Below are positions 1,520 through 19,400 of a stretch of 64,000 bases of DNA, piece after piece (within the stretch, counting starts at the first letter, position 1; every line of letters starts with the position of its first letter). Position numbers and translations under genes: made by a program. The stretch is from an uncultured Bdellovibrionales bacterium (GTDB lineage: Bacteria; Patescibacteriota; Minisyncoccia; Moranbacterales; UBA9337), in assembly GCA_964605525.1 (NCBI GenBank), contig CAZSCV010000003.1, positions 4,227 through 68,226 of the forward strand, read 5' to 3'. The notes under the pieces were generated by a model. The model saw nothing but the letters and a program-made list of their open reading frames with translations, had not been told where the DNA came from and made no database searches.

Positions 1520-2965
1520 GTGAATATGAATTCAAAAAAAACAATTGAGCATCTATTTTATGCGATAATATTTTTGCTTCCCTGGCAAGGGGTTTGGATT
1601 TGGCGCGAGCCTTTTGTGGGCGGTTTCAAGTGGGAATACGGCACCATTGGAATATATGGGATTGATTTTCTTATATTGCTCTTTTTGATATTAAGTTCGG
1701 TGAATTATTTGAGAGTTTTTAATTTCTCCGCCCAAGGCGGACCAGCCCTGGGCTGGCAATTTCTCCGCCCAAGGCGAATCAGCCTCTGGCTGACAAAATT
1801 CAAAATTCAAAATTATAATTACGTCTTACGTCTTACGTCTTACGTCTTAGTCGCTTGGTCTTTTCTCTCCATTATCTGGTCTTCGGATAAAATTTTAGCC
1901 GGTTATTTTTCTTTCAAATTGTTATTGGCTGTTGGCTTGTTTTGGGTGGTGCGGAGGATGAATATAAATTGGAGAAAGTTAGTTTTTGTCTTGATGCTTA
2001 CCGGAGCGTTGCAAGGCGCGCTGGCAACCGGACAGTTTTTGGCGCAAAATGATTTTTCCAGCACGCTTTTGGGAACGAGCCAGCACGTTGTTTCAGCTGG
2101 CGGAACATCGGTGATTGAAACGCCGGGTGGAAGATGGCTCCGGGCATACGGAACGTTTCCGCATCCGAATGTATTGGGAGGATATCTTACTGTGATTCTA
2201 TTACTCATTATTTTTCAAGATACAAGACACCCCGAAAATATTCGCCACAGAGCAGGCAAGACACAAGAAACAAGCAATTTTAAATTTTTAATTTTAAAAT
2301 TAAGAAATTGGAAATTGTTTAGAAATTCGAAATTAGAAATTAGAAATTCAGAATACGTCTTACGTCTTACGTCTTACGTTTTAATCTTTTCCGGACTGGT
2401 TGTTTCTTTTTCCCGCAGTGCTTGGCTGGTTTTCGCTATCGGATTTATTTTGTTGTTTATCTTTAAAAAAGATAAACGAAGAGAATTGGGCAAATTAGTT
2501 TTTGTTTTTTCTGTCATTGCGCTTGTTTGGATCGGTGTTTTCTCTCCTTTGTTTTTTTCCCGCATCGCCGGAGAAGAAAGATTGGAAAAAAAATCTTTCG
2601 ATGACCGGAGCGCGTATGTTTTGCAATCGAAAGAAATCATAAAAGAAAATTTTTGGCTGGGAACGGGAGCTGGAAATTATACGAAAGCAGTGGCGGATAA
2701 AAATCCACAAAAACCAATCTGGCAAATTCAGCCGGTGCATAATGTCTTTCTGCTTGTCTGGTCAGAATTGGGGGCTATTGGCTTGGTTTTGCTTATCGCA
2801 TTCTTATTTTTATGGGCAATTGGGCTATTTTTAACAAATAAATATTTACCACTGCTCATCGTTCCTTGCTTATTGTTTTTTGTTTTCGATCACTGGCTTT
2901 GGACATCACATTTCGGCTTGTTGTTTTTATTTTTAATTTTAGCATTAATACTCAAAAAGAAATGA
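1520..2965 (+). CDS. O-antigen ligase / Wzy_C-family polytopic membrane protein carrying two in-frame repeat insertions
   Basis: It has multiple TM segments and a Wzy_C-like core (SRSAWLVFAIGFILL ... GTGAGNY ... HNVFLLVWSELG). The inserted repeats are translated as SAQGGPALGWQFLRPRRISLWL and, twice, as YVLRLTSYVL. Confidence 0.6.
   Translation: MNMNSKKTIEHLFYAIIFLLPWQGVWIWREPFVGGFKWEYGTIGIYGIDFLILLFLILSSVNYLRVFNFSAQGGPALGWQFLRPRRISLWLTKFKIQNYNYVLRLTSYVLVAWSFLSIIWSSDKILAGYFSFKLLLAVGLFWVVRRMNINWRKLVFVLMLTGALQGALATGQFLAQNDFSSTLLGTSQHVVSAGGTSVIETPGGRWLRAYGTFPHPNVLGGYLTVILLLIIFQDTRHPENIRHRAGKTQETSNFKFLILKLRNWKLFRNSKLEIRNSEYVLRLTSYVLIFSGLVVSFSRSAWLVFAIGFILLFIFKKDKRRELGKLVFVFSVIALVWIGVFSPLFFSRIAGEERLEKKSFDDRSAYVLQSKEIIKENFWLGTGAGNYTKAVADKNPQKPIWQIQPVHNVFLLVWSELGAIGLVLLIAFLFLWAIGLFLTNKYLPLLIVPCLLFFVFDHWLWTSHFGLLFLFLILALILKKK
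1721..1849. repeat. in-frame composite insertion: two palindromic cores, (CAAAATT)3 and (ACGTCTT)4
   Basis: Cores at 1728-1756 and a degenerate one at 1765-1792; the heptamer array is at 1821-1848. Confidence 0.8.
2281..2378. repeat. in-frame AT-rich heptamer repeats (GAAATTn) followed by (ACGTCTT)3
   Basis: It has the same 7-mer array as 1821-1848 and encodes the same YVLRLTSYVL peptide. Confidence 0.75.
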
Positions 2966-3288
2966 AAGAAAAACTATTGAAAATTATTCCTAATTTAATC
3001 CCGATTACTCTAATGGTCGGACTTATTCCAATTATTGCCAATGATTATGTCTTGCTTCTAGCATACGTGTTTGTAATTTCGATCTCCTTTTGGATAAAAT
3101 ATGAAAAACGCGAGTATGTTTATTTTTCTTTTGGGTTGGTGATAATGGTTTTTTCCGAATGGATTTTTGTGAGTACGGGAGTGGAAACTTTCACTCGAAA
3201 TAGTTTACTGGGAGTAATGCCGATTTGGCTGCCGGTTCTTTGGGCATATGCTTTTGTGGCAATGAAAAGAGCAGTTGTGATTTTGTGA
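2962..3288 (+). CDS. small hydrophobic membrane protein
   Basis: Its ATG overlaps the stop codon of the upstream gene (ATGA). Three to four predicted TM helices. Confidence 0.4.
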   Translation: MKEKLLKIIPNLIPITLMVGLIPIIANDYVLLLAYVFVISISFWIKYEKREYVYFSFGLVIMVFSEWIFVSTGVETFTRNSLLGVMPIWLPVLWAYAFVAMKRAVVIL

Positions 3289-3338
3289 GAAATCATTATA
3301 CTGAATGCATAAAATAGTTAAAAGTAGTTCGTAAATGT

Positions 3339-4298
3339 ATGCCGGAATTGCCTGAAGTGCAAACGATTGTTGACGATTTAAACAGGAAGATAAAAGGCGA
3401 CACGATCGTTGGTTTTTGGAGTGATTGGCCGAAAGCCATAAAAGGCGTGAATTTTAAAAAATTCGAAGCGGAAATAAACGGCAAAAAAATTCTCAAAGCC
3501 TGGCGGATTGGAAAGAATATGTTCGTGGATTTGTCCGGAGGAAAAACGATTTATATCCATTTGAAAATGACGGGACACCTGCTTGTGAAGACACGGGAAA
3601 ATTTCCAATTTCCAATTTCTCCGCCCAAGGCGGACCAGCCTTGGGCTGGTAATTTTCAAACAAATCCCAATGACAAAATTTCAAATTTAGAAAAAAATAA
3701 AAATTATTTTGATGACAGGGTTAATCAATATATACATCATATCTGGAAACTAAAATCTGGAAAAACTTTGGAATTTTCGGATATGAGAAAGTTTGCCAAG
3801 ATTGTTTTGGTTGATACGGACAAGGTTATGGAATTGCCGGAAATCAAAAAACTGGGGGTGGACGCGATGAGCGCGGATTTTACTTTGGAAAAATTTGAAG
3901 AAATATTGGAAAAAAGAAAAAACAAGAAAATCGGGCTGGTTTTAATGGAGCAGGAATTGATTGCCGGAATCGGAAATATTTATCGTAGCGAGATTCTTTT
4001 TGACGCAGGAATACATCCTGAACGGTTAGTGAAAGATTTAAAAAAAGCGGAAACAGAAACATTGTACAATTCTATCTTGAAAGTTCTCAAAAAAGCCGTC
4101 AAAATGCGGGGAACTTCCGATAGTGATTATCGCGACACGGACGGCGCGCCGGGAAGCTTCGGAAAGGTTTTGAAAGTTTACCGAAAAAAAGGCGAAAAAT
4201 GCTCGTGTGTGCGAGATGGAAAAAAATGTGGTACAATTATTGAAAGAATAATAATGGGGCAAAGGAGTGTGTTTTTTTGCCAGAAATGCCAGAAATAA
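3339..4298 (+). CDS. mutM: formamidopyrimidine-DNA glycosylase with an in-frame palindromic insertion
   Basis: N-terminal MPELPEV, an H2TH region and a C-terminal zinc finger (CSCVRDGKKC...CQKC). The insert is translated as FQFPISPPKADQPWAGNFQTNPNDKISNLEKNKNYFD. Confidence 0.85.
   Translation: MPELPEVQTIVDDLNRKIKGDTIVGFWSDWPKAIKGVNFKKFEAEINGKKILKAWRIGKNMFVDLSGGKTIYIHLKMTGHLLVKTRENFQFPISPPKADQPWAGNFQTNPNDKISNLEKNKNYFDDRVNQYIHHIWKLKSGKTLEFSDMRKFAKIVLVDTDKVMELPEIKKLGVDAMSADFTLEKFEEILEKRKNKKIGLVLMEQELIAGIGNIYRSEILFDAGIHPERLVKDLKKAETETLYNSILKVLKKAVKMRGTSDSDYRDTDGAPGSFGKVLKVYRKKGEKCSCVRDGKKCGTIIERIIMGQRSVFFCQKCQK
3596..3700. repeat. in-frame palindromic element with (TTCCAAT)n and AAATTTC flanks inside mutM
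   Basis: Core CCGCCCAAGGCGGACCAGCCTTGGGCTGG at about 3621-3649. Confidence 0.8.
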
Positions 4299-4301
4299 AT
4301 T

Positions 4302-5516
4302 TTGAGTGTAAATTTTAATAATAAAAGAAAATCAATGAGTAATAAAAACAAGGCGGTAATTGCGATTGTCGTAATAATCATTGCCGGAATGGCGGTGTAT
4401 TTTTTTGGTAATCGCGATGCAAGAAGAAGCAAGAATGCCAAGCCGATCAGCATTGAAAGTAATAGCGAAGCTTCCAGTCAATCTATTCAAAACACCGGTC
4501 CGGTAAGTCCGATTACGGGATTATCCTGTGACAACTGGAACCGCCGTCCGGTTGCAGTGATGCAGCCTGCCGATATCCAAGCTCGTCCGGCTGCCGGCTT
4601 TTCCGAGGCGGATATGGTCTTTGAGATGCCAGCCTATACATCCAGCAATACAAGATTGATGGGAGTGTATATTTGCAATTTACCCAAAGATATTGGAGCG
4701 ATACGAAGTTCTCGTCATGATTATATCGCCCTTGCGAAAGGATTGGATGCTTACTTTATTCATTGGGGAGGATCGCATTTTGCTTTGGATCTTTTAAAGG
4801 AAAATGTTATTGATCATATGGACTGCCTTGCATATGAAGGATCATATTGCAGCAGATGGGACTGGCAAAATGATCCGGTTATGCGTATGGAAGATTCCGG
4901 GCATGTTACTAGTGAATCTATTGTGAAAGCAATGAAAGATTTGAACATAAGGACCGAGGGAAATTTTGTCGGATATCCTCATCAAGCTGAGGCTCCGGAA
5001 GACCAGCGTCCAAATGGCGGACATTTGAGAGTAGCTTTTGCCGGAATATATGCGGTTGAATATGATTATGATAAAGCAACTAACACATATTTGCGTACCT
5101 GGGGAAATGTCGAGGATACCGATAGAAACAATAAACAAAGATTAGCGCCGAAAAACGTCGCAGTTTTGTTTGCCTCATCAGAACAAATTGTTAATACAAA
5201 AGATTATGCCGGTCTTGGACTGAGAAATCCATGGGAAAATGTGGAAGCGGTTAAAAATACCGGAGATGAGAGTATAAGTGGAAGATACAATAACGTTCAA
5301 ATAGGTGATCCATGGTACGACGAAACTGATTCCGGAGAAGCGCATTATTATTTCAACGGAAAAGAATACTTGGGAACTTGGAAAAAAGACCGATCTAAAA
5401 TCGACAGCAAATTGTTTTTTTATGATCAATCCGGAAAGGAAATTCAATTTGTTCCCGGTCAGGTTTGGGTTGAAATTCTCGAGCCTGGACAAGTATTAAG
5501 ATGGCAACAGTCGTAA
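4302..5516 (+). CDS. DUF3048 (YerB-like) membrane-anchored protein
   Basis: N-terminal TM helix. PVAVMQPADIQARPAAGFSEADMVFEMPAY matches the DUF3048 N-terminal domain. Confidence 0.55.
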   Translation: MSVNFNNKRKSMSNKNKAVIAIVVIIIAGMAVYFFGNRDARRSKNAKPISIESNSEASSQSIQNTGPVSPITGLSCDNWNRRPVAVMQPADIQARPAAGFSEADMVFEMPAYTSSNTRLMGVYICNLPKDIGAIRSSRHDYIALAKGLDAYFIHWGGSHFALDLLKENVIDHMDCLAYEGSYCSRWDWQNDPVMRMEDSGHVTSESIVKAMKDLNIRTEGNFVGYPHQAEAPEDQRPNGGHLRVAFAGIYAVEYDYDKATNTYLRTWGNVEDTDRNNKQRLAPKNVAVLFASSEQIVNTKDYAGLGLRNPWENVEAVKNTGDESISGRYNNVQIGDPWYDETDSGEAHYYFNGKEYLGTWKKDRSKIDSKLFFYDQSGKEIQFVPGQVWVEILEPGQVLRWQQS

Positions 5517-7644: not shown

Positions 7645-8736
7645 GTGTTTATGGAAGAAATAAAAAATATGGATTTTTTGCAGTCGGAAGATTGGCGAAA
7701 GTTTCAAGAAAGCGTCGGGCGCAGAACTTTCAAAATTTCTTCCGGAGATTTCAATGCCAGCATAATCGAACATAAATTGCCGATAGCCGGCAATTATTTT
7801 TACGCGCCGCGAGGTTTTGTCATTCCCGCGGAGGCGGGAATCCAGGATGCTGGTTGTAAGCTTCTAATCAAAGATATTTTTAATTTGGCAAAAAAAGAAA
7901 AAGTAAATTGGATAAGATTTGATGCGGAAAATAAAGATGTTTTAAAAACAATGGAAGAATGCGGATTAAAAGTTGAAAAGGCGCCGCATGATATGCAACC
8001 GCGGCAGACTCTTGTAATTGATATTTCAAAGCCGGAAGAAAAATTGCTGGAGGAAATGAAAAGCAAGACACGATACAACATAAGATTATCTGAAAAACGC
8101 GGGGTTAGAATTTTCAATTTTCAATTTTTCCGCCCAAGGCGGACCAGCCTTGGGCTGGCAATTTTAAAACAATTTTCAAATTCTAATGATAAAATTTTAA
8201 ATAAAGAAAATAAAGAAAAATTCAATACTTATGCTAATGAGTTTTTGCGGTTAGTGAGGATTACATCGAAACGGCAGGGGATCACTTCTCATCCGGATGA
8301 ATATTATCGAAAAATGCTTGAAATTCCATGCGTGCAATTGTATGTGGCGGAATTTGACGGAAAAGTTGTGGCGGTGGCGGTCGTTTCTTTTTTTGAGGGA
8401 GTGGCGACATATTTGCACGGAGCGTCAGATGACAGATATAAAAACGTAATGGCGCCGTTTGCGCTCCATTGGAAAATAATAAAAGACGCAAGGGAAAAAG
8501 GGTGCAAAAAGTATGATATGGGAGGAGTTAGCGTTAATTTTCAATCTTCAATTTCCAATGTAAAAAAAGAAAAAATTCAAAATTCTTCAGATTGGGCGGG
8601 GATTACACGGTTTAAATTGGGATTTTCTCCAGAAACAAAACCGACTGAATTTGCAGGAAGCTATGACATCATTATTGATCAAAAAAAATATTTCTTATAT
8701 AAATTTTTGCAGTTTATTAAAGGATTGATGAAATAG
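7645..8736 (+). CDS. FemAB-family peptidoglycan interpeptide-bridge aminoacyltransferase with an in-frame palindromic insertion
   Basis: FemAB-like N and C domains (LHWKIIKDAREKGCKKYDMGG). The insert is translated as FNFQFFRPRRTSLGLAILKQFSNSNDKILNKENKEK. Confidence 0.65.
   Translation: MFMEEIKNMDFLQSEDWRKFQESVGRRTFKISSGDFNASIIEHKLPIAGNYFYAPRGFVIPAEAGIQDAGCKLLIKDIFNLAKKEKVNWIRFDAENKDVLKTMEECGLKVEKAPHDMQPRQTLVIDISKPEEKLLEEMKSKTRYNIRLSEKRGVRIFNFQFFRPRRTSLGLAILKQFSNSNDKILNKENKEKFNTYANEFLRLVRITSKRQGITSHPDEYYRKMLEIPCVQLYVAEFDGKVVAVAVVSFFEGVATYLHGASDDRYKNVMAPFALHWKIIKDAREKGCKKYDMGGVSVNFQSSISNVKKEKIQNSSDWAGITRFKLGFSPETKPTEFAGSYDIIIDQKKYFLYKFLQFIKGLMK
8107..8200. repeat. in-frame palindromic element with (TTTTCAA)n flanks inside the femAB-like gene
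   Basis: Core at about 8130-8158. Confidence 0.8.
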
Positions 8737-8824
8737 TTTGCGGACTTGATTTTTCTCAGTATTCTTGTATGATAAGGGTTAAACAAAGATAAGTTCTTTA
8801 TAAATCTACTCAAAGGAGCTGGCT

Positions 8825-9514
8825 ATGCGAAGAAAACCTGAAATTCTCGCGGCCGATCCCGTGAGAGAAAAAAGAAGACATTGGCAGCAAATAAATATTT
8901 CTGCTTTTGCTAAAAAAATGGGCGCACATCTTATTTTGAATGCAGAAAATTGTTGCGATACCTATCATCAAAATTGTTTTCGAAGAAATGGAGATGAATA
9001 TCGCAAGCACCCAAAAAGAGTTTTGCGATCATATATTTTCTATACAATAGTTAAACACAGGATGATTTTCAATAGTCAAATGGACCAGGAGGGTTCAGGG
9101 GTATTATTGCACGATACTATTGAAGATGTCAGTGATAAAATATTGGAAAATATTAGCAGCGCGTATGGAGCAATAACATTGGATTTCGTTAAAGCTCTTA
9201 CCAGAGGGGAGAAGGAATCGATTATTGGTTTCGTAAAAAGAGTTGTTAAGCGGTCAAATACGACACTTGGAAAACTGTGCGATAGCATTGATAATTCCCT
9301 GGGAATGTTGGAAGAATATTATTCCGATGTTCCATCTGAGGATTTAGAAAGATTGAAAACGTATATGTGTAAAAAAATATTCCCATTGATTGTTGTTGTG
9401 TACAATACCGATATGGGAAACTCAAAATATGCAGCGGCCGTTAAAGAGGCGTTGCATGACCTGATCCTTTGTTATCGAGAGGCTCAGGAGGTTATAAAAA
9501 TGGAGAAAAAATAA
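8825..9514 (+). CDS. hypothetical protein
   Basis: ORF only; no recognisable motif. Confidence 0.4.
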   Translation: MRRKPEILAADPVREKRRHWQQINISAFAKKMGAHLILNAENCCDTYHQNCFRRNGDEYRKHPKRVLRSYIFYTIVKHRMIFNSQMDQEGSGVLLHDTIEDVSDKILENISSAYGAITLDFVKALTRGEKESIIGFVKRVVKRSNTTLGKLCDSIDNSLGMLEEYYSDVPSEDLERLKTYMCKKIFPLIVVVYNTDMGNSKYAAAVKEALHDLILCYREAQEVIKMEKK

Positions 9515-11403: not shown

Positions 11404-11955
11404 ATGGGAATTGGATTGATTTTGTTAATAGTCGCAGTTGTGGTCGTTGTTTGGGTTATTGGTGTGTATAATGGGCTGATCAGGCTTAAAAATAGAGTAG
11501 ACGAAGCTTGGAGTGATATTGATGTCCAACTCAAGAGGCGTTATGATTTGATTCCGAATTTGATCAATACCGTCAAAGGTTATGCATCGCATGAAAAAGA
11601 ACTTTTGGAAAAAGTGACAGAGGCAAGGACGGCAGCCATGGGAGCGCAAACTCCGGCAGAAAAAGAAGGAGCGGAAAATATGCTTTCCGGAACACTCAAA
11701 TCCCTTTTTGCGGTAGCGGAAAATTATCCGGATCTGAAAGCCAATCAGAATTTTTTGGAGTTGCAACGGGAGCTTTCCGATACTGAAAACAAAATCCAAG
11801 CATCTCGAAGATTTTACAACGGCAATGTCCGCGATTTCAATATCAAAATAGAAGTTTTTCCAAGCAGTATCGTTGCTGGAATGTTGCATTTTTCTAAGCG
11901 TGATTTTTTCGAAGCCGAGGAAAGTGAGAAAGAAAATGTTAAGGTTGAGTTTTAA
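11404..11955 (+). CDS. LemA family protein
   Basis: N-terminal TM helix followed by NGLIRLKNRVDEAWSDIDVQLKRRYDLIPNLINTVKGY, the LemA signature. Confidence 0.8.
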   Translation: MGIGLILLIVAVVVVVWVIGVYNGLIRLKNRVDEAWSDIDVQLKRRYDLIPNLINTVKGYASHEKELLEKVTEARTAAMGAQTPAEKEGAENMLSGTLKSLFAVAENYPDLKANQNFLELQRELSDTENKIQASRRFYNGNVRDFNIKIEVFPSSIVAGMLHFSKRDFFEAEESEKENVKVEF

Positions 11956-11984
11956 TTTTTCAATTAATTAAATTTATATTTGCG

Positions 11985-12644
11985 ATGTTTGGACAGGATA
12001 AGGAAAATGATAAAAATTCTTCATTAAAATGCGACAATACGTGTTTTTTGGTTTTTATTATAGGAATAATTTTTGTTTTTTTCGCAATAGTGGTTTTTTC
12101 TTTGTATCAAATTAAGGAGATGCTCGGAATTCATTTGACTGATGATGTTAAGCATCCAACCGGAATTATTGCCCAAGAGCAAGAAATTGGCGGTGATGAG
12201 TTGTGGGAGTGTTTCCATCAGACCGACAAAAAATTCATGGTGTATTATCCTTCAAGTTGGAAACTTTCAAACAGTCCTGATTATTTGGCGGTTATTCGCA
12301 GGATTAGTGAAGTTAAAACAGAAAAGTATATTCAAGGAATAATGACTGTTTCTGTGTCGATTGATGTTGTTGAAAAAGAGAAAGCAATGTCAATGGCGGA
12401 TTTTGCGGATAAAAATAGAAATGATTCTGATCAATATGATGTTTTTCATTCCTCCGATAATGAAGCGGTTGCGGCAGGAGTATCAATTAATCGGAAAATT
12501 CCATTTGAGTCGCATTGTTTTGACATGGGAAGCGAGGCACTATGTCTTCGGGCGGATTATTATGGAAGCGGAAGCGATTTAGAAAAAGACAAAAATATTT
12601 TTTCGGAAATAGTTTCCCGCGTTGAAATAACAAAAGACGAATAA
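11985..12644 (+). CDS. hypothetical membrane-anchored protein
   Basis: N-terminal TM helix. It abuts htpX and is probably co-transcribed with it. Confidence 0.4.
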   Translation: MFGQDKENDKNSSLKCDNTCFLVFIIGIIFVFFAIVVFSLYQIKEMLGIHLTDDVKHPTGIIAQEQEIGGDELWECFHQTDKKFMVYYPSSWKLSNSPDYLAVIRRISEVKTEKYIQGIMTVSVSIDVVEKEKAMSMADFADKNRNDSDQYDVFHSSDNEAVAAGVSINRKIPFESHCFDMGSEALCLRADYYGSGSDLEKDKNIFSEIVSRVEITKDE

Positions 12645-12645
12645 T

Positions 12646-13536
12646 ATGGCGACACTTTATACTCAAGCCGATAGGAATGTTCGATTGACCTGGATATATA
12701 TCTCCGGGTTTTTGGTGTTTGTGATCGGGGTGGGTTATGTTTTCGCCGGGGCGATGGGGAATAGCACGATTTTGTATGGCGCGGTTATTTTTTCGGTAGT
12801 GATGAGTTTCGGATCATATTGGTGGAGCGACAAAATCGTTTTGGCGATGAGCGAGGCAAAGGAATTGACCCATGACAACAATCGGGAGATATACCATCTG
12901 GTGGAAAATCTCTGCATTACCGCCGGCCTTCCTGTTCCCAAGATTTATATCATCCAAGACAGCGCGCCGAACGCTTTCGCGACCGGGCGCGATCCCAAGC
13001 ACGGGGTTATTTGCCTGACGACCGGGATCGTTGAAAAATTGGAAAAGACCGAATTGGAAGGAGTAATCGCGCATGAACTTTCGCATATCGGGAACCGGGA
13101 TATCCTGCTTTCCACGGTGGTCGTGATTTTGGTAGGCTTCGTTACGCTTTTGGCGGATTGGTTCCGGCACTGGGCGTTTTTTGGCAGACGCGGAAGTGAC
13201 CGTGAAGGTGGTGGTCAATTGCAGATCATTTTGATGGTCGCGGCGATCGTGCTTTCGATTTTGGCTCCGATCGCGGCAGTGCTGATGCAATTGGCGATTT
13301 CTCGAAAAAGGGAATTTTTGGCGGATGCCTCCGCGGCCCTTCTGACGCGTTATCCGGACGGATTGGCACGCGCCTTGGAAAAGATTTCCGCCGACAAAGA
13401 GCCGCTGGAAGCCGCCAACCGGGCTACGGCGCATCTATATATCGCCAATCCTTTTAAAGGAAAGAAAGTTTCCAGCTTATTTCAGACCCATCCATCTATA
13501 GAAGATCGAGTAAAAGCGCTTCGCAATATGAAATAA
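12646..13536 (+). CDS. htpX: M48 family zinc protease HtpX
   Basis: HELSHIGNRD (HExxH), four TM segments and the C-terminal PSIEDRVKAL. Confidence 0.85.
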   Translation: MATLYTQADRNVRLTWIYISGFLVFVIGVGYVFAGAMGNSTILYGAVIFSVVMSFGSYWWSDKIVLAMSEAKELTHDNNREIYHLVENLCITAGLPVPKIYIIQDSAPNAFATGRDPKHGVICLTTGIVEKLEKTELEGVIAHELSHIGNRDILLSTVVVILVGFVTLLADWFRHWAFFGRRGSDREGGGQLQIILMVAAIVLSILAPIAAVLMQLAISRKREFLADASAALLTRYPDGLARALEKISADKEPLEAANRATAHLYIANPFKGKKVSSLFQTHPSIEDRVKALRNMK

Positions 13537-13650
13537 ATTGTTTATGCCTGTCCGCCTTTGGAGGAACTCACCCGCCGATTGAAGAAAGAGTGGCAAAGTT
13601 ACGGGGGATGGAATGAAATAATAATTAGTAAATAATAATTAGTAAAAGGT

Positions 13651-14070
13651 ATGGAAGTTTTTCAACCGGAAAAAAAAGAGAGTCTTTTGGATAAGATAAT
13701 AAGAAATATTTTTAGAGATAGAAATACTTTAGAGCAAAGAGTATCGCAGTCAGTTAGTTATATGAATGAAGGCGGTAGTGCTATGTCGGAATGTGAACTT
13801 GCAAGATATATCATCGGAAAAGATAATTCTGCTATGTTGCCTAAAAAAGATTTTGCAATGCTTAAAGACGAAATAGTAAGAATGGTGAAAAAGGCAAAAG
13901 AAGAAATGGCAAAATCATCCAATGAAAAAAGAAGGCTTTCTATTAATGTCGGAAGAGGAGAAAAAATTGTAACAGATAAAATGAAAAAAGAAGCAAGGAT
14001 AAAAGAGGAAGATGTGGAATTGATAGAAACGGGGTTTGATCCGGAAGAAATCCGAAAAGAACTCAAATAA
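13651..14070 (+). CDS. hypothetical protein
   Basis: ORF only; charged, K/E-rich. Confidence 0.4.
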   Translation: MEVFQPEKKESLLDKIIRNIFRDRNTLEQRVSQSVSYMNEGGSAMSECELARYIIGKDNSAMLPKKDFAMLKDEIVRMVKKAKEEMAKSSNEKRRLSINVGRGEKIVTDKMKKEARIKEEDVELIETGFDPEEIRKELK

Positions 14071-14161
14071 AAAATGTATCCTGGTATAAAAAAATCGCAG
14101 TCGCAAGCGCGCTTCAGTGCCGTGCTTTTTAAATTAAGGCACTTGTAAGTCTTTACAAACT

Positions 14162-14197
14162 CACTCACTTTTATGCAATCGCATAAAAGTGAGTGAG
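14162..14197. repeat. near-perfect palindrome (17-bp stem, AATC loop), copy 1, downstream of the PaaX-like gene
   Basis: CTCACTCACTTTTATGC-AATC-GCATAAAAGTGAGTGAG. Confidence 0.8.
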
Positions 14198-14231
14198 ATA
14201 TGGAGCGAGAAATAAAAGCAGGGATGGTAAG

Positions 14232-14882
14232 TTAGAATAATTTAAAGGATTTTTTCAATTCTTCTTCGTGGAGTATTTTTTCAGCGGTTATTATTTCGAT
14301 ATATTTTTGTACATTGTATAATTCCGCGATAAACAAGATTTCATCCTCGCATTCATAAGGGAAAACCCAGGCGCTTTTTTGCAGTTGTCTGAATTTAAGC
14401 TCTTTTATTTTGTTTCTGAGGGCGTTGCGAGCCTGATCGAATATTTTCGGACGAGATGGGATGTCGAAAATCAAAATTCTCCATTTTCCGTCCCAAGTCT
14501 GTGGTTTTTTGATTTTGAGGTTTTGCAAATAGAAATCCTTGCTCCTCCGCTGCCCTTTATTTGTTAGTTTGACTTGAAATTTTCCGTTCTTTTCTTTGAT
14601 TATTTCGACCAGTTTCCGTTGTTTAAGGTTATTTAAGGCGGAAGTCATTTGTTTTTTTGTGTATTTTTTGTCTGATGTTTCTTTTGATTTTGAATATTTC
14701 TCAAAACTTTTCGCCGCGGAAAATATGTTCGGAGCGGCCGCCGCCACTACCAGCATCGGTCCCATAGCTAATGCCGCCAGCAGGAATTTTCCGGCGGTTG
14801 CCGGCAGGGTATCGGAATATAGGAAATTATCCTTGAATTTTTCTTTGAAAGATTTCGTTTTTTTCTTGTTTTTACTTTTCAT
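14232..14882 (-). CDS. PaaX-like winged-helix transcriptional regulator with an N-terminal hydrophobic segment
   Basis: wHTH (MTSALNNLKQRKLVEII) plus a PaaX_C-like WRILIFDIP...LGF..LQKSAWVFP C-terminus. Confidence 0.5.
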   Translation of the reverse strand: MKSKNKKKTKSFKEKFKDNFLYSDTLPATAGKFLLAALAMGPMLVVAAAAPNIFSAAKSFEKYSKSKETSDKKYTKKQMTSALNNLKQRKLVEIIKEKNGKFQVKLTNKGQRRSKDFYLQNLKIKKPQTWDGKWRILIFDIPSRPKIFDQARNALRNKIKELKFRQLQKSAWVFPYECEDEILFIAELYNVQKYIEIITAEKILHEEELKKSFKLF

Positions 14883-14928
14883 TTTTTAGTAACATGGTCA
14901 TTATATCTATTATTGTATTAATTATACA

Positions 14929-14968
14929 ACTCACTCAATTTTATGCAATCGCATAAATTTGAGTGAGT
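14929..14968. repeat. near-perfect palindrome, copy 2, upstream of the PaaX-like gene promoter region
   Basis: ACTCACTCAATTTTATGC-AATC-GCATAAATTTGAGTGAGT, almost identical to the 14162-14197 copy. Confidence 0.8.
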
Positions 14969-15048
14969 GGTAGATGATTGTCGGAAGAGTTTTTCGGGGA
15001 ATAAAAAAGAAGGACAAGCGCGCTGGATTGTCCTTTTACTTGCGACTT

Positions 15049-15300
15049 TTATTTTTTTATAAAATATTGAATAATAGGTAGAATCATGATTATCAAAATA
15101 GATAATATGAATCCTATAAATCCTACTAGGGCTATTGTCCTTGGTATGTAAAATGTGATCATCTTTTTTCTTTTTGGCAATGAATAGAAAAAAGGATTAT
15201 CTCTTTGTCCGCAGAGAAAAGTCCAAATAATTCCTATTTCAAACAAAACAAATGAATAGGTAAAGACTAAACCTAGTATTGTTTCTATTAACATTAACAC
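15049..15300 (-). CDS. small membrane protein
   Basis: 83 aa with two to three TM helices; ORF only. Confidence 0.35.
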   Translation of the reverse strand: MLMLIETILGLVFTYSFVLFEIGIIWTFLCGQRDNPFFYSLPKRKKMITFYIPRTIALVGFIGFILSILIIMILPIIQYFIKK

Positions 15301-15484
15301 GGCAAACCTCCTTTTTCTTCGTAGTTTATTGGGTTGTTAATGAGCTCGTGAAATTTAATTATAATAATTATTGAAATAAAAGTCAATAAAAAGTGAAAAA
15401 TATTATTTATTAAGTTATAAAAGTGCTTTAAATAAAGCAAAATAAAATGTTGACAAGATATCAACAAAATGCTAAAATACGGAT

Positions 15485-16246
15485 ATGATTCAAGAATTAT
15501 TACAACAATTAAAGTGTTCGGAAAAAGAGATAGAGGTATATCTTTATGTTTTAAGGCAAGGGAAAACCACTCCGGCTCGAATTTCTAAGGGAACGGGAAT
15601 AAATCGATCAACCGTTTACGTTGTGTTGGGAAAGCTTAAAAAGAATGGGTTGGTCGTTGAGGATATCAGTTCTAAAATTCTTTTTTATTCTGTTTCATTA
15701 TCGGAGGCAGTAGAGGATATGTTTTATCGCCAGCAAGAGAAGTTGAATAAAAAGAAAAATATTGCAAGAAAACTAGCGGAAGAGCTGGAAAAATTTCCGC
15801 AGAACAAAAACTATTCAGTTCCGAAAATCAGATTTATCGAGGAAGATGATTTGGAAGATTTTTTATATAAAAATCAGAAAAAATGGAAAGACAGTGCAGA
15901 TTTAAAAGATGGTTGTTGCTGGGGTTTTCAAGATCATAGCTTTGCTGAAAATTATCAAAAATGGATTGATTGGGCATGGAAAAATTATAAAATACAAGTA
16001 AATCTTTTTAGTAATGAATCCAATATTGAAAATAAGTTAAACAATAAATTTGACGAATTAAGAAAGATTAAATTTTGGGGAAAAGATTTGGATTTTACTT
16101 CATCAATGTGGATAATGGGGGATTATTTAGTAATGATAATCACTAAGCAAAAGCCATATTATTTGGTTGAAATAAATGATGCAGTACTTGCTTATAATCT
16201 CAGGGAGATTTTTCGAAAAATGTGGAATGAAGATAAAAAATATTAG
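15485..16246 (+). CDS. TrmB-family HTH transcriptional regulator
   Basis: N-terminal LKCSEKEIEVYLYVLRQGKTTPARISKGTGINRSTVYVVLGKL is the TrmB HTH. Confidence 0.6.
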   Translation: MIQELLQQLKCSEKEIEVYLYVLRQGKTTPARISKGTGINRSTVYVVLGKLKKNGLVVEDISSKILFYSVSLSEAVEDMFYRQQEKLNKKKNIARKLAEELEKFPQNKNYSVPKIRFIEEDDLEDFLYKNQKKWKDSADLKDGCCWGFQDHSFAENYQKWIDWAWKNYKIQVNLFSNESNIENKLNNKFDELRKIKFWGKDLDFTSSMWIMGDYLVMIITKQKPYYLVEINDAVLAYNLREIFRKMWNEDKKY

Positions 16247-16257
16247 CAGGATAATGA

Positions 16258-16740
16258 TTGTTTAATAAAAATATGCAATTTCAAATTCCCAAGGATAATG
16301 ACAAATATCAGTGGACGGCGCATTCGGTGATGAAGATGCGGCAGTATGGGCTGAGCGCCCAGCGGGTTTTGCGCGTGGTGCGCGCTCCGCACAGAAAGGA
16401 AGAAGGAATTGTGAAAAAAACCGTTGCCGTAATGCAACCGGTTTCTTTCAAAACCGACAAAGAGGGAAAACGCACTTGGGGAAGTGAGATTTGGGTGATG
16501 TATCAGCTCCGACGTGGCGTCAAAGCAATGACCAATAACCAATTTCTCCGCCCAAGGCGGACCAGTCTTGGGCTGGCAATTTCCAAACAAACTCAAAATT
16601 CCAAATTAAACATTTTCAATTCCGCGAGTCAGAAAATTCGCATTATAAGTGCTTGGAAATATCCCGGAGTGAGTCCGAAAAATAACCCTGTTCCTGAGGA
16701 TATTTTGCGAGAATTGGAGGAGTTGGATGACGTTGTGTAA
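16258..16740 (+). CDS. hypothetical protein with an in-frame palindromic insertion
   Basis: The insert is translated as FLRPRRTSLGLAISKQTQNSKLNIFN. Confidence 0.4.
   Translation: MFNKNMQFQIPKDNDKYQWTAHSVMKMRQYGLSAQRVLRVVRAPHRKEEGIVKKTVAVMQPVSFKTDKEGKRTWGSEIWVMYQLRRGVKAMTNNQFLRPRRTSLGLAISKQTQNSKLNIFNSASQKIRIISAWKYPGVSPKNNPVPEDILRELEELDDVV
16541..16620. repeat. in-frame palindromic element with CAAAATT-type flanks
   Basis: Core CCGCCCAAGGCGGACCAGTCTTGGGCTGG at about 16549-16577. Confidence 0.8.
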
Positions 16741-16802
16741 TTTTTAGTGATATGATAGAATAAAATAAATTTAGTAATCATATTAAAAAATAAAATAAAT
16801 TT

Positions 16803-17246
16803 ATGGAAGAATTAAAAAATGTGAATAGTGAAGAAGGTCAAAAAGTAGAAGAAAAAGAATCCGGCGCTTCCTTGGAATCTGAAAAAAAAGAACAGACTCA
16901 GTCTGAAAATTCTGTCACTGAATCAGCTCCTGAGCCGAAAAAAGCGGAAAGCAAGGATGTTCAAGAAAACAAAATGATTGCATTGCTTAGTTATATCTCG
17001 ATACTTTTCTTGATACCTCTTTTGGCAAAAAAAGACAGTGTTTTCTGCCAATTCCATGCCAAACAAGGATTGGTTTTGTTTCTTGGTGAACTTGTCGGAT
17101 GGTTGCTGTATCCGTTTTTAGGCTTGGGATTTTTGGTTCATTTGGCTGTTTTGGTTCTGGCAATTATGGGAATTATAAATGTTTTAGGTGGCGAAATGAA
17201 AAAACTTCCTTTGGTAGGAGATTTTGCTGATAAGTTTAATCTATAA
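16803..17246 (+). CDS. DUF4870 family membrane protein
   Basis: IALLSYISILFLIPLLAKKDSVFCQFHAKQGLVLF is the DUF4870 signature. N-terminal E/K-rich tail. Confidence 0.6.
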   Translation: MEELKNVNSEEGQKVEEKESGASLESEKKEQTQSENSVTESAPEPKKAESKDVQENKMIALLSYISILFLIPLLAKKDSVFCQFHAKQGLVLFLGELVGWLLYPFLGLGFLVHLAVLVLAIMGIINVLGGEMKKLPLVGDFADKFNL

Positions 17247-17369
17247 TTCAAATCTTTTTGCAATGTTCGTTCAAGGCAGGCCATCTTTCAAAGTTGCCTG
17301 TTTTGATTTATACTGAAGAAAGTAATAGTTTTTTATTTATTAAAATAAAAAGTAAATAATATAAAAAAT

Positions 17370-18824
17370 ATGACAGTTAGAAATATATCTTGTTTTTGTG
17401 AGAAAAAAACAAAAATAGTCGCTACGATTGGACCAGTTTCGGAAAGCAAGGAAATGCTGGAGAAAATGATAAAAACAGGAATGAATGTTGCCAGGCTTAA
17501 TTTTTCTCACGGAGCGCACCAATGGCACAAAAAAACCATTAATAACATCCGTCAGGTTTCAGATAAATTAGGAGCAAATATTGGCATTATGGCTGATCTG
17601 CAAGGTCCTCGCATCAGAATTGCTACGTCTGGCGATGTGATTGCCAGAAAAGGAAAAGAACTTTTGGTAAGTGATGTCCGTTATCGGAAGAGTGTTTCAA
17701 ATATGTCGGCAGATATTTTTTATTTGGATTATCCGGGGATTATTGATTGTATTAAGGAGGGAGATACAATCATGATTGAAGATGGATTGATAAAATTGGA
17801 AGTTTCCAAAAAAAGTTCGAATTTTCTTCGAACAAGAGTTATTGATGGCGGTGTGATTCGCAATCATAAGGGAGTAAATCTTCCGGATTCTGATTTGAAT
17901 ATTGGAGTTGTGACAAAAAAAGATATTGATGATCTCAAGATGGCATTGGAAAATGATGTGGATTTTGTGGCACTTTCTTTTGTTAGTTGTGCAAAAGACA
18001 TTAACGGACTGAGAAAAAGAATGGAGCGTATTTTGGGGAGAAAAAATGACCTGCCTCAGATTGTAGCAAAGATTGAGCGAAAAGAAGCCATTAATAACCT
18101 AGATGAAATAATTGAAAGTACTGATGTAGTGATGGTGGCACGCGGTGATTTGGGAATTGAAATGGATCAAAGCAAAGTAGTGATATGGCAAAAGGAAATA
18201 ATTAAAAAAAGTTTGAAAAAGGCCAAGCCGGTAATAGTTGCCACGCAAATGCTCAATAGTATGATTGAAAATCCACGTCCGACCAGAGCGGAAGTGAGTG
18301 ATGTTTCCAATGCTGTAATTGACCACGCGGATGCCGTTATGCTTAGCGGAGAATCTGCCAATGGAAAATATCCGGTTGAGAGTGTAAAAATGATGGCGGA
18401 AATTATTCGCAATACCGAAGAATCTCCTTTTGATGACGTGTATAAATATATGGATTTGCATATCAGCAGTGAGTATGCGACAGTGGTTCGCAGCGCTTAT
18501 GAAATTGCCAAAAGTTACAATGTAAAGGCGATTGCAATGATAAGCCTTAGTGGATTTACGGCAAGGCTGGTTTCGCATTTCCGCCCTGATCAAAATATTT
18601 TAGTGGTGACTAATAGAAAAAAAACATTCAATCAATTTTCTTTGGTATGGGGAGTATGCGGTTATCTTTTTGAGGATGATAAAAATTTGGAAGATTTGAT
18701 AGTTAAAATGCTTGATCAAACAAAAAAGGACAAGCGCCTGAAAACAGGGGACAGCGTGGTGGTTATTATCGGTCGGGTTTTAAATGGAGAGAAAATGCGT
18801 TTAGTTGGAATTCGCAAAGCTTGA
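17370..18824 (+). CDS. pyk: pyruvate kinase
   Basis: KTKIVATIGP...NVARLNFSHG, MVARGDLGIE and overall 484-aa PK architecture. Confidence 0.9.
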   Translation: MTVRNISCFCEKKTKIVATIGPVSESKEMLEKMIKTGMNVARLNFSHGAHQWHKKTINNIRQVSDKLGANIGIMADLQGPRIRIATSGDVIARKGKELLVSDVRYRKSVSNMSADIFYLDYPGIIDCIKEGDTIMIEDGLIKLEVSKKSSNFLRTRVIDGGVIRNHKGVNLPDSDLNIGVVTKKDIDDLKMALENDVDFVALSFVSCAKDINGLRKRMERILGRKNDLPQIVAKIERKEAINNLDEIIESTDVVMVARGDLGIEMDQSKVVIWQKEIIKKSLKKAKPVIVATQMLNSMIENPRPTRAEVSDVSNAVIDHADAVMLSGESANGKYPVESVKMMAEIIRNTEESPFDDVYKYMDLHISSEYATVVRSAYEIAKSYNVKAIAMISLSGFTARLVSHFRPDQNILVVTNRKKTFNQFSLVWGVCGYLFEDDKNLEDLIVKMLDQTKKDKRLKTGDSVVVIIGRVLNGEKMRLVGIRKA

Positions 18825-18942: not shown

Positions 18943-19227
18943 ATGTATTACGTGTATATTCTATATAGTGAAAAACTTAAAAAGAGATATATTGGATATT
19001 GCAGTGATTTAGGGAGGCGAATAAAAGATCACAATGAAAGAAGGGTAGTTTTTACATCAAGAGGTGTTCCGTGGAAAATAATTTATTATGAGGTTTTTGG
19101 AAGTAAGAGTGATGCACAAAGGGAAGAAAAATTTCTAAAAACAGGAAAAGGCAGGGATAGAATTAAATTTTTATTGGAGGATACGATGAAGAAAATAAAT
19201 GGAAGAATTCTAGGATCATCTGAATAA
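18943..19227 (+). CDS. GIY-YIG nuclease family protein (short, stand-alone)
   Basis: N-terminal YVYILYS...YIGYCSDLGRRIKDHN is the GIY-YIG motif. It is a paralog of the 56123-56413 ORF. Confidence 0.8.
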   Translation: MYYVYILYSEKLKKRYIGYCSDLGRRIKDHNERRVVFTSRGVPWKIIYYEVFGSKSDAQREEKFLKTGKGRDRIKFLLEDTMKKINGRILGSSE

Positions 19228-19312: not shown

Positions 19313-19400
19313 GGAGAGTTCGCATAGCGGTCTAGTGCGCACGCTTGGAAAGCGTGTGTGTCGAAAGGCACCGAGGGTTCAAATCCCTCACTCTCCGCCA
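19313..19400 (+). tRNA. tRNA-Ser(GGA), class II with a long variable arm, CCA encoded
   Basis: Acceptor GGAGAGT/ACTCTCC, anticodon stem CACGC/GCGTG with loop TTGGAAA, variable arm GTGTGTCGAAAGGCACC, T-arm GAGGG-TTCAAAT-CCCTC. Confidence 0.85.

Follow-up and report, generated by a model that had tools for sequence, protein, structure and literature searches.

Two matching palindromes bracket a truncated PaaX-like gene in Moranbacteria and are candidate operators of its product

We analyzed a 64,000-nt stretch of contig CAZSCV010000003.1 (this whole stretch is called the window, and positions are counted from its first letter). On its minus strand lies a gene for a 216-aa protein related to the regulator PaaX, here termed mini-PaaX, and two 38-bp palindromes, 14160–14197 and 14930–14967, flank this gene. 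Identical or near-identical proteins come from metagenome-assembled genomes (MAGs) of Candidatus Moranbacteria/Moraniibacteriota. The palindrome ahead of the gene is referred to as UP and the one beyond it as DN.

The mini-PaaX gene and its two palindromes

The features of the locus are as follows (a bar within a motif marks the center of a site; ORF, open reading frame; AF2, AlphaFold model; wHTH, winged helix-turn-helix):

14232–14882, minus strand: mini-PaaX gene, 216 aa, 651 bp (ORF and Pfam PaaX_M match)
14730–14786, minus strand: hydrophobic, transmembrane-grade segment, codons 33–51, FLLAALAMGPMLVVAAAAP (Kyte-Doolittle)
14565–14723, minus strand: probable wHTH, codons ~54–106 (AF2, weak Pfam wHTH matches, Foldseek)
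14262–14501, minus strand: Cas2-like (PaaX_M) domain, presumed dimerization module, codons 128–207 (Pfam, AF2, Foldseek)
14930–14967, strand-neutral: UP copy, proposed autoregulatory operator; the gene strand reads CTCACTCAAATTTATGCGA|TTGCATAAAATTGAGTGAG
14160–14197, strand-neutral: DN copy, proposed second operator without a promoter; the gene strand reads CTCACTCACTTTTATGCGA|TTGCATAAAAGTGAGTGAG
14909–14948, minus strand: candidate promoter overlapping the UP operator, with two predicted options
14938–14933 and 14914–14909, minus strand: promoter option 1, TTGAGT, 18-nt spacer, AATAAT (consensus scan)
14948–14943 and 14926–14921, minus strand: promoter option 2, TTGCAT, 16-nt spacer, TATAAT (candidate)
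15000–15035, minus strand: terminator-like hairpin (AAGGACAA...TTGTCCTT and a T-run) of an upstream 83-aa ORF; context, outside the unit (fold, conservation)

The DN palindrome reads CTCACTCACTTTTATGC-AATC-GCATAAAAGTGAGTGAG and has perfect 17-bp arms, while in the UP palindrome one position of the arms is mismatched and one pair differs in a compensated way (C-G to A-T). Viewed along the gene strand, either one consists of two 19-nt half-sites meeting at the center TGCGA|TTGCA, with a symmetry of 18/19 and 17/19. The gaps to the gene are 34 nt past the stop codon and 47 nt ahead of the start codon, and the distance from center to center, 770 nt, is typical of the family described below. The bracketing of a regulator gene by palindromes with 17-bp stems had been proposed in a sequence-only reading of this DNA and is confirmed here, the coordinates given there being off by 1–2 nt at most. 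When the 64 kb were searched for extra copies, only the two bracketing sites were present; relaxed searches with the core only or the outer arms only returned no further convincing copy in the window, and no match was obtained in any shuffle of it. On both strands, the two palindromes are predicted to fold into hairpins of very high stability (z about −8; −25 to −28 kcal/mol).

The same reading had called the encoded protein PaaX-like, which holds for the central domain and not for the protein as a whole. Residues 128–207 match the Pfam domain PaaX_M (PF20803, Cas2-like) with an E-value of 5.9e-19 and 68.4 bits against a cut-off of 24 bits. An AlphaFold model of the window protein, built on a 32-sequence alignment (mean predicted local distance difference test, pLDDT, 69), shows this domain at a pLDDT of ~90. 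The Cas2-type Asp is retained in the motif WRILIFDIP, and residues W130, D131, W134, R135, F139, D140 and P142 are invariant. The effector domain PaaX_C has no Pfam match in the window protein, which stops 9 residues past the Cas2-like domain, and the score with the PaaX equivalog model TIGR02277 is 19.3 bits, far under the cut-off of 264.55. The Pfam PaaX N-terminal domain is unmatched as well, and matches to wHTH models are weak (E 0.009–0.06). In the AF2 model, residues 54–106 contain three helices and a beta-hairpin, with helices at residues 54–68 and 76–88 and strands at 92–98 and 101–106 (pLDDT ~60–74), which would place a putative recognition helix at ~76–90 and a putative beta-hairpin wing at 92–106. 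Foldseek ranks Cas2 and VapD structures first, with PaaX also among the top matches; the alignment with E. coli PaaX (8a39) covers 150 columns with an E-value of 8e-3 and a template modeling (TM) score of 0.32. The window protein is probably a truncated PaaX relative consisting of a hydrophobic N-terminus, a probable winged helix and a Cas2-like domain, and lacking PaaX_C.

The N-terminal hydrophobic stretch, which the earlier reading had singled out as unusual, is real and is a feature of the whole family, being kept in 32/32 relatives examined. Its Kyte-Doolittle mean over 19 residues is 2.06 at residues 33–51 and ranges from 1.4 to 2.45 across the 32 relatives; G41 and P51 are nearly invariant, lysine and arginine are richer on its C-terminal side, and AF2 models the segment as helical with low confidence. 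These features suggest that the protein is tethered to the membrane. One may speculate that tethering would make operators next to the gene handy for capture in cis.

Defense-system models do not match the window protein, the 64-kb window holds no CRISPR-like array, and among the called neighbor genes of the window and of related loci there is neither a Cas1 gene nor any paa gene.

With respect to the candidate promoter, the −35 hexamer of option 1 (TTGAGT) falls inside the right arm of the UP palindrome. The sequence TGTATAAT, directly past this palindrome, is kept in the orthologous loci L077, L079 and L003 (97, 86 and 76% identity, respectively), and sequence farther out diverges. As the terminator-like hairpin of the 83-aa ORF ends ~35 nt before the UP palindrome, no space is left for a promoter upstream of the latter. 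This hairpin is kept, with a better stem, in L077 and L079; a strict terminator scan did not flag it.

Palindrome pairs across the family

A profile search of 1.84 billion cluster representatives puts the mini-PaaX family at 3836 clusters (50% identity) at E<=1e-3 and at 2263 clusters at E<=1e-10, with 2–4 paralogues per genome. From species-representative genomes of Moranbacteria and relatives, 74 loci were fetched and the gene was located in each; counts below are given out of 75. Under a strict rule for the center (GCAN|NTGC with <=1 mismatch and >=12/19 symmetric positions), both UP and DN sites are present in 55/75 loci, UP alone in 4, DN alone in 6 and neither in 10, so that an UP site is found in 59/75 loci and a DN site in 61/75. 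Several of the 10 loci with neither site have variant centers (CCAT|ATGG, GCAC|GTGC), and allowing for these raises the number of loci with both sites to about 62/75. A repeat tool independently confirmed the bracketing at four loci, in two of which the 37–40-nt copies are 100% identical.

The bracketing palindromes are 36–40 bp long. Their sequence varies from locus to locus and matches across the two sides of one locus: inside the 38 bp, UP and DN are identical at a fraction of 0.83, against 0.52 between loci, and in the immediate flanks the value is 0.30–0.33, equal to background. As identity falls to background just outside the 38 bp, it is the palindrome alone that is conserved as a unit, rather than some duplicated segment. 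The median distance is 67 nt from the UP center to the ATG, 54 nt from the stop codon to the DN center, and 755 nt from center to center. Within 320 nt of the gene, sites occur at 2.33/kb, as compared to 0.027/kb in the rest of the fetched DNA (~330 kb), and shuffled sequence gives zero sites. The palindromes are not a ubiquitous terminator family unlinked to the gene, since sites are enriched 85-fold next to mini-PaaX genes. Of nine distal sites, eight are matches to the local operator (identity 0.79–1.00). Paralogues within one genome bear different palindromes, having on average 3.1 of the 7 outer-box positions in common. On this comparative evidence, self-bracketing with an own palindrome for each paralogue is the rule of the family.

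For the anatomy of the site, ~130 sites were aligned on their centers. Their consensus reads a..tt..TCAAaTTttTGCAT|ATGCA..AAtTTGA. Both mirror symmetry and the conservation between UP and DN reach ~0.9–1.0 at positions ±1–4 and ±12–18, just 0.54–0.81 at ±5–11, and at background by ±20. The constrained parts are a central TGCA(T/A)|(A/T)TGCA and 7-bp outer boxes, in a 7-N22-7 layout that spans 36–38 bp overall. Mirror pairs that do not match (G·T 35+48, A·C 49+36, other 174+111) are mostly of transversion type and not wobble-compatible, and they show no excess of G·T. Such a bipartite and sharply bounded pattern resembles the footprint of a protein on duplex DNA and is unlike a base-paired stem.

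The outer boxes co-vary with the protein. Recognition-helix motifs track outer-box types across loci: TTAGTCAA goes with the helix A(V/I/Y)YNLKK, ACTCA/AATCA/TCTCA with NNLKQRK, xTACTTTT...GCAA|TTGC with (E/A)YLKKKQ, and ATATGCTAA with A(N/H)LKRQK. The window itself has ACTCA...TGAGT inside CTCACTCA/TGAGTGAG. In a partial Mantel test that controls for the Cas2-like domain, helix distance and outer-box distance correlate with r=0.33 (p~0.0005), and the reverse partial correlation is weaker (0.21). On going from the window lineage to the lineage of its 86%-identical orthologue, ATTACTCA takes the place of CTCACTCA in the arm of most half-sites, bracketing as well as solo, and two arms are mixed.

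The two sites differ in their relation to promoters. Hexamers resembling a −10 element peak at +23 and +33 from the center at UP sites only, and a hexamer of this kind lies between +19 and +37 in 66% of UP sites vs 25% of DN sites; the right outer box resembles TTGA(C/G)T. The UP copy would hence overlap a core promoter, and the DN copy appears to be generally promoter-less.

We also considered the DN copy as an operator of the downstream gene and rejected this in general. Downstream neighbors are split about evenly between convergent and co-directional genes, and −10-like hexamers are equally rare in both classes of DN site (7/29 where the next gene is convergent, 6/24 where it is co-directional). 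Locus L077 is an exception, to which the downstream-operator reading applies: its DN copy precedes a duplicated promoter. In this stretch (L077 10712–10870), a sequence that nearly repeats the UP promoter (TTATATAATCAATGCAATAATGAATATAATGACCATG) comes after the DN palindrome; next is a fragment of 24 codons from the 5′ end of the gene p160, duplicated from beside a third palindrome of that locus.

Cognate operators and the alternatives

We consider it fairly probable that the palindromes are cognate operators of the enclosed mini-PaaX, the UP copy serving autorepression and the DN copy being an auxiliary site. The earlier suggestion of an autoregulatory operator on both sides of the gene is well supported by the comparisons: the layout is family-wide, the palindromes are locus-specific, UP and DN co-vary, the constraint resembles a footprint, the span is that of the PaaX operator and the UP copy lies over a candidate promoter. 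We infer from these patterns that the encoded protein is the binder and that binding represses, and the role of the DN copy is derived in the same way.

A symmetric oligomer, at least a dimer, would read the 38-bp site through the two 7-bp outer boxes (±12 to ±18) and the central TGCA(T/A)|(A/T)TGCA. As the UP site overlaps the −35 region of the predicted promoter of the gene, its occupancy would repress transcription, resulting in negative autoregulation. The DN site, in promoter-less 3′ untranslated or intergenic DNA ~50 nt past the stop codon, would act as an auxiliary operator. It could cooperate with UP through a loop of ~755 bp around the whole gene or, alternatively, act when bound as a roadblock or insulator that shields the unit from neighboring transcription. 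Each paralogue would have evolved its own operator, giving 2–4 orthogonal self-bracketed units per genome, with a few extra cognate sites near other genes.

Several observations weigh against this interpretation. At many sites the 38-bp palindrome is perfect or almost so; such length and exactness are unusual in an operator, and these sequences would form very stable hairpins too. Asymmetric middle positions are common to UP and DN, sometimes in flipped orientation; as a symmetric dimer would not select shared asymmetric positions, common descent or gene conversion may contribute to the similarity of the two copies. Judged by the 64-kb window, the only target of the protein would be its own gene, an odd situation for a regulator. 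The spacing between UP and DN shows no helical phasing, a test that is uninformative for loops of ~750 bp. The winged helix is modeled at moderate confidence only, and a transmembrane-grade segment fits poorly with a classical soluble repressor. At most loci the DN hairpin could act at the RNA level too, for want of a separate canonical terminator. Finally, the support is entirely comparative.

The palindromes might instead function as the ends of a small palindrome-gene-palindrome cassette that is mobile or duplicative. The encoded Cas2-like protein could drive its movement by working on ends in hairpin or cruciform form, or else host recombination or breakage at long palindromes could do so; conservation resembling that of an operator would then reflect end recognition. 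We regard this as unlikely. One case for it is a pair of contigs from one MAG, L015 and L016, which have a 784-bp segment in common at 97% identity within unrelated flanks, a recent duplication. The segment begins 13 nt to the left of the UP palindrome and stops 3 nt to the right of the DN palindrome, and the L016 copy is a pseudogene beside a reverse transcriptase like those of diversity-generating retroelements (DGR). At L023 and L028, units that are 83% identical begin exactly at the UP palindrome and have flanks without detectable homology. Long direct repeats surround the unit at 3/49 loci (94 nt at L039, 51 nt at L017, 30–55 nt at L010), relatives with an 85–88% identical HtpX are without the whole block, solo copies of the palindrome of the window lineage exist at other loci, and the Cas2-type Asp is invariant.

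Gene context is otherwise stable. The TrmB...HtpX neighborhood is the same in the orthologues at 97, 86 and 76% identity. One identical protein is found in a single gene context in 24 contigs, and a single context is also seen in 21 contigs, bar one rearrangement 290 nt from the palindrome. Units are single-copy, each with its own palindrome, and identical multicopy sets were not seen, L015/L016 being the exception; even there no target-site duplication was found. The flanking repeats are 50–250 nt away from the palindromes on their outer side; this position agrees better with acquisition of the Campbell type than with transposition specific for the ends, and the repeats suggest that the block was acquired at L010, L017 and L039 by single-crossover integration. 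Syntenic sites that are empty in relatives contain no solo palindrome, and models of transposases, recombinases and defense systems gave no matches. The hairpin-bounded mobile cassette of the sequence-only reading thus retains minority support, from the 784-bp duplicate that ends at the palindromes, against the stable context in 24 and 21 contigs and in the orthologues. Taken together, the sequences would describe a compact module, complete in itself, that now and then is copied or gained as one block, rather than an active transposon. Breakage or recombination provoked by the palindromes may help in this.

The pair L045/L052 was rejected as a case of cassette movement, as its flanks are syntenic at 72–74% identity, and the rearrangement of P0081 is unrelated, as its breakpoint is 290 nt off the palindrome. 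At L016 (1414–2908), two ORFs are directly upstream of the pseudogenized unit, one for the DGR-like reverse transcriptase (372 aa, with a YADD motif) and an Avd-like one for a four-helix bundle; the reverse transcriptase ORF runs into the UP palindrome. The flanking repeat of L010 (2809–2844 / 3744–3779) is the 3′ end of the upstream AP-endonuclease-like gene.

The outer motifs of the window had been taken as a hint of terminal inverted structure. The motifs exist, and they do not have that arrangement. The 10-mer CAAGCGCGCT occurs twice in the window (14104–14113 and 15015–15024), as a direct and not an inverted repeat, and the repeat is not above a cross-locus control. Its 15015 copy (the 'GACAAGCGCGCTGG' motif) makes up the loop and the inner part of the stem in the hairpin 15010–15035 within the conserved terminator-like element, intact in L077 and L079, from both of which the 14104 copy is absent. 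A target-site duplication or terminal inverted repeat, created by insertion into a split terminator, was rejected on these grounds, the hairpin being intact and conserved and the other copy missing in orthologues. Insertion into a split terminator was also rejected because the putative junction would cut the stem of the hairpin and the repeat is at control level. An inverted pair of 23 nt at 14085–14107 / 15039–15061 had, together with the 10-mer, prompted the idea of such an insertion; the outer motifs do not mark the ends of an element.

Comparison with relatives gave a divided answer as to the bracketed unit: it is kept in L077, L079 and L003, where the gene still lies between a TrmB-family gene and HtpX with both palindromes present, and the whole block is absent from L092, L094 and L096. 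These last loci (HtpX 85–88% identical; syntenic to window 11404–18824) have the order LemA-HtpX-p160-...-pyruvate kinase, with no p139/mini-PaaX/p83/TrmB block and no palindrome. As these relatives have neither block nor palindrome, the mini-PaaX block is, to judge from these loci, lineage-specific and placed in a variable region. A metagenome scan with the palindrome of the window lineage found solo copies elsewhere, for example before a flavoprotein gene, before a gene of 391 aa, between RNase HII and rpmF, and between convergent genes. Locus L084 has two palindromes of different specificity classes (centers 6102 and 7987), each between convergent genes in a terminator-like position and far from any mini-PaaX gene within the 14.5 kb covered.

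According to another explanation, which we hold to be quite improbable, the palindromes are bound by some other factor, either a neighboring TrmB-family regulator or a shared host protein that reads the TGCAT|ATGCA center, and the mini-PaaX gene is its target. A TrmB-family gene does lie within 3 kb in 24/75 loci, among them the window (15485–16246, plus strand), with varying position and orientation, and the center box is nearly invariant across paralogues whose proteins differ. Yet two thirds of the loci have no TrmB gene nearby and about 80% have sites; the sites are positioned relative to the ends of the mini-PaaX gene, and their outer boxes co-vary with the mini-PaaX recognition helix. 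At L077, moreover, the TrmB gene (8408–9154) is just 25% identical to the window TrmB at the same position, which looks like a gene replacement in the variable region between HtpX and pyruvate kinase, and the palindromes have not changed with it. A third cognate palindrome of L077 (center 8373) lies beside this TrmB gene. In the P0024 group the mini-PaaX gene stands between two TrmB genes in 24/24 contigs, and L098 has TrmB-family genes at 1833–2687 and 3752–4501.

It is very doubtful that the palindromes are simply RNA hairpins on the transcript of the gene, a 5′ stabilizer and a 3′ terminator or stabilizer, with no sequence-specific protein partner. The stability of both copies on either strand and the place of DN right after the stop codon would fit, and within 330 nt a separate canonical terminator is missing from most loci. 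DN sites also surpass UP sites a little in symmetry (16.15 against 15.49 of 19 positions, p=0.04), and their sense-strand excess of G·T is weak and non-significant (p=0.06). However, structure alone does not need UP and DN to share sequence, and they are 83% identical as compared to 52% between loci. Pairing is relaxed in the middle of the supposed stem and strict at the two boxes, with mismatches that are mainly not wobble-compatible. The palindrome arms are A+T-rich, and the aligned family sites show no U-tract or T-run consensus after DN; a T-rich tail follows only 39% of DN sites vs 27% of UP sites, and a terminator scan of 13900–15500 returned zero terminator-like sites. The UP copy overlaps the likely promoter instead of following it, with the terminator-like hairpin of the upstream ORF only ~35 nt away. 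Terminator-like hairpins trailing the gene were detected at ~18 loci, mostly beyond the DN site (in about 15 loci; two loci have no DN site and a few a weak one). As these hairpins mostly sit past DN, the DN site is not simply the terminator, and an additional role of it at the RNA level is possible.

Highly improbable, in our view, is that the units are autonomous selfish modules, in which a membrane-anchored winged-helix/Cas2-like protein would recognize, and possibly nick or synapse, its own bounding palindromes, so that the 0.8-kb unit, tightly self-repressed, is duplicated or relocated as a block (as at L015/L016); were it true, such a unit would be a mobile element of a minimal kind that lacks every known transposase or recombinase fold.

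Relation to known systems and further observations

The closest known relative of mini-PaaX is PaaX of E. coli and Pseudomonas, with which it has in common a homologous Cas2-like central domain, including the motif WDGKW present in E. coli PaaX; in PaaX a winged helix precedes this domain, and in mini-PaaX a probable one. In PaaX the Cas2-like domain is the dimerization module, the gene is autoregulated through an operator that overlaps its promoter, and the E. coli operator TGATTC(N27)GAATCA is found at Pa, Pz, Px and pac (PMC9493321). The candidate operators described here are likewise very long palindromes with presumed specificity in short outer inverted repeats ~30 bp apart (7-N22-7 here, 6-N27-6 in PaaX), and the UP copy is predicted to overlap the promoter of its own gene. 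Unlike PaaX, mini-PaaX has no PaaX_C domain and no paa genes nearby, and its spacer is of 22 and not 27 bp; it has in addition a conserved center box, a hydrophobic N-terminal segment, a putative second operator downstream and 2–4 orthogonal paralogues per genome.

Operators on both sides of a repressor gene are known from phage lambda, where OL and OR flank cI-rexAB, and lac (O2), gal (OI) and deo have auxiliary downstream operators; DNA looping sharpens autoregulation in such systems. Both lambda operators regulate promoters, and CI octamers are required for the loop. The mini-PaaX layout resembles lambda, lac, gal and deo in that a repressor gene or promoter lies between two sets of its own operators, here predicted ones. 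It differs from lambda in that the downstream site is promoter-less and the putative loop encloses a single gene of 0.65 kb.

Like Cas2 and VapD, the C-terminal domain of mini-PaaX has a ferredoxin-like fold and conserves the Asp at the end of beta-1; unlike them, it comes without Cas1 or a CRISPR array and is fused to an N-terminal region of ~125 aa, predicted to bind DNA, instead of being a stand-alone protein of ~90 aa. A gene between lineage-specific, hairpin-forming palindromes, with occasional solo copies, also recalls RAYT/REP elements, the ends of IS200/IS605 and pdif (Xer) modules. In contrast to these, mini-PaaX has no HUH or tyrosine-recombinase domain, its context is stable in most lineages, and its palindromes are not amplified (two in 64 kb; about 0.03/kb away from the gene). 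The membrane-integrated one-component regulators ToxR and CadC likewise combine a DNA-binding domain with a single transmembrane-grade segment; in mini-PaaX the order is reversed, the segment being N-terminal with only ~30 residues before it, and there is no sensor domain.

In the searchable literature we found no description of the self-bracketing layout, and no paper that links PaaX-like proteins with bacteria of the Candidate Phyla Radiation (CPR) or with Cas2. Regulators of CPR/Patescibacteria are almost wholly uncharacterized and genetically inaccessible, and here sequence alone gives dozens of predicted protein-operator pairs. These belong to one large family (about 2,300–3,800 clusters) whose specificity appears readable as recognition helix versus outer box, and they might be of use as orthogonal repressor/operator parts. 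The wiring rule itself, a regulator gene enclosed by its own predicted sites, is unusual. The PaaX fold, known from a ligand-controlled catabolic repressor, would here occur in a self-contained module that lacks an effector domain and is possibly tethered to the membrane, and the rule raises the question of what a promoter-less operator does just past a stop codon, be it as part of a loop, a roadblock, an insulator or a cassette boundary.

Some minor observations concern features beside the unit. In L087 and L089, a conserved, G+C-rich and structured-looking stretch (~3620–3800) precedes the UP operator; it is located just within the breakpoint of a strain-specific rearrangement and may be a small RNA. 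An RNA family search of the window found a tRNA only; directly upstream of this sole tRNA gene (19313–19397) lies a small GIY-YIG-like ORF of 94 aa (18943–19227). Elsewhere in the window, at 41178–41558, a tandem repeat with a unit of 162 nt (2.3 copies, 75% matches) lies inside an ORF of 1702 aa (39889–44997).

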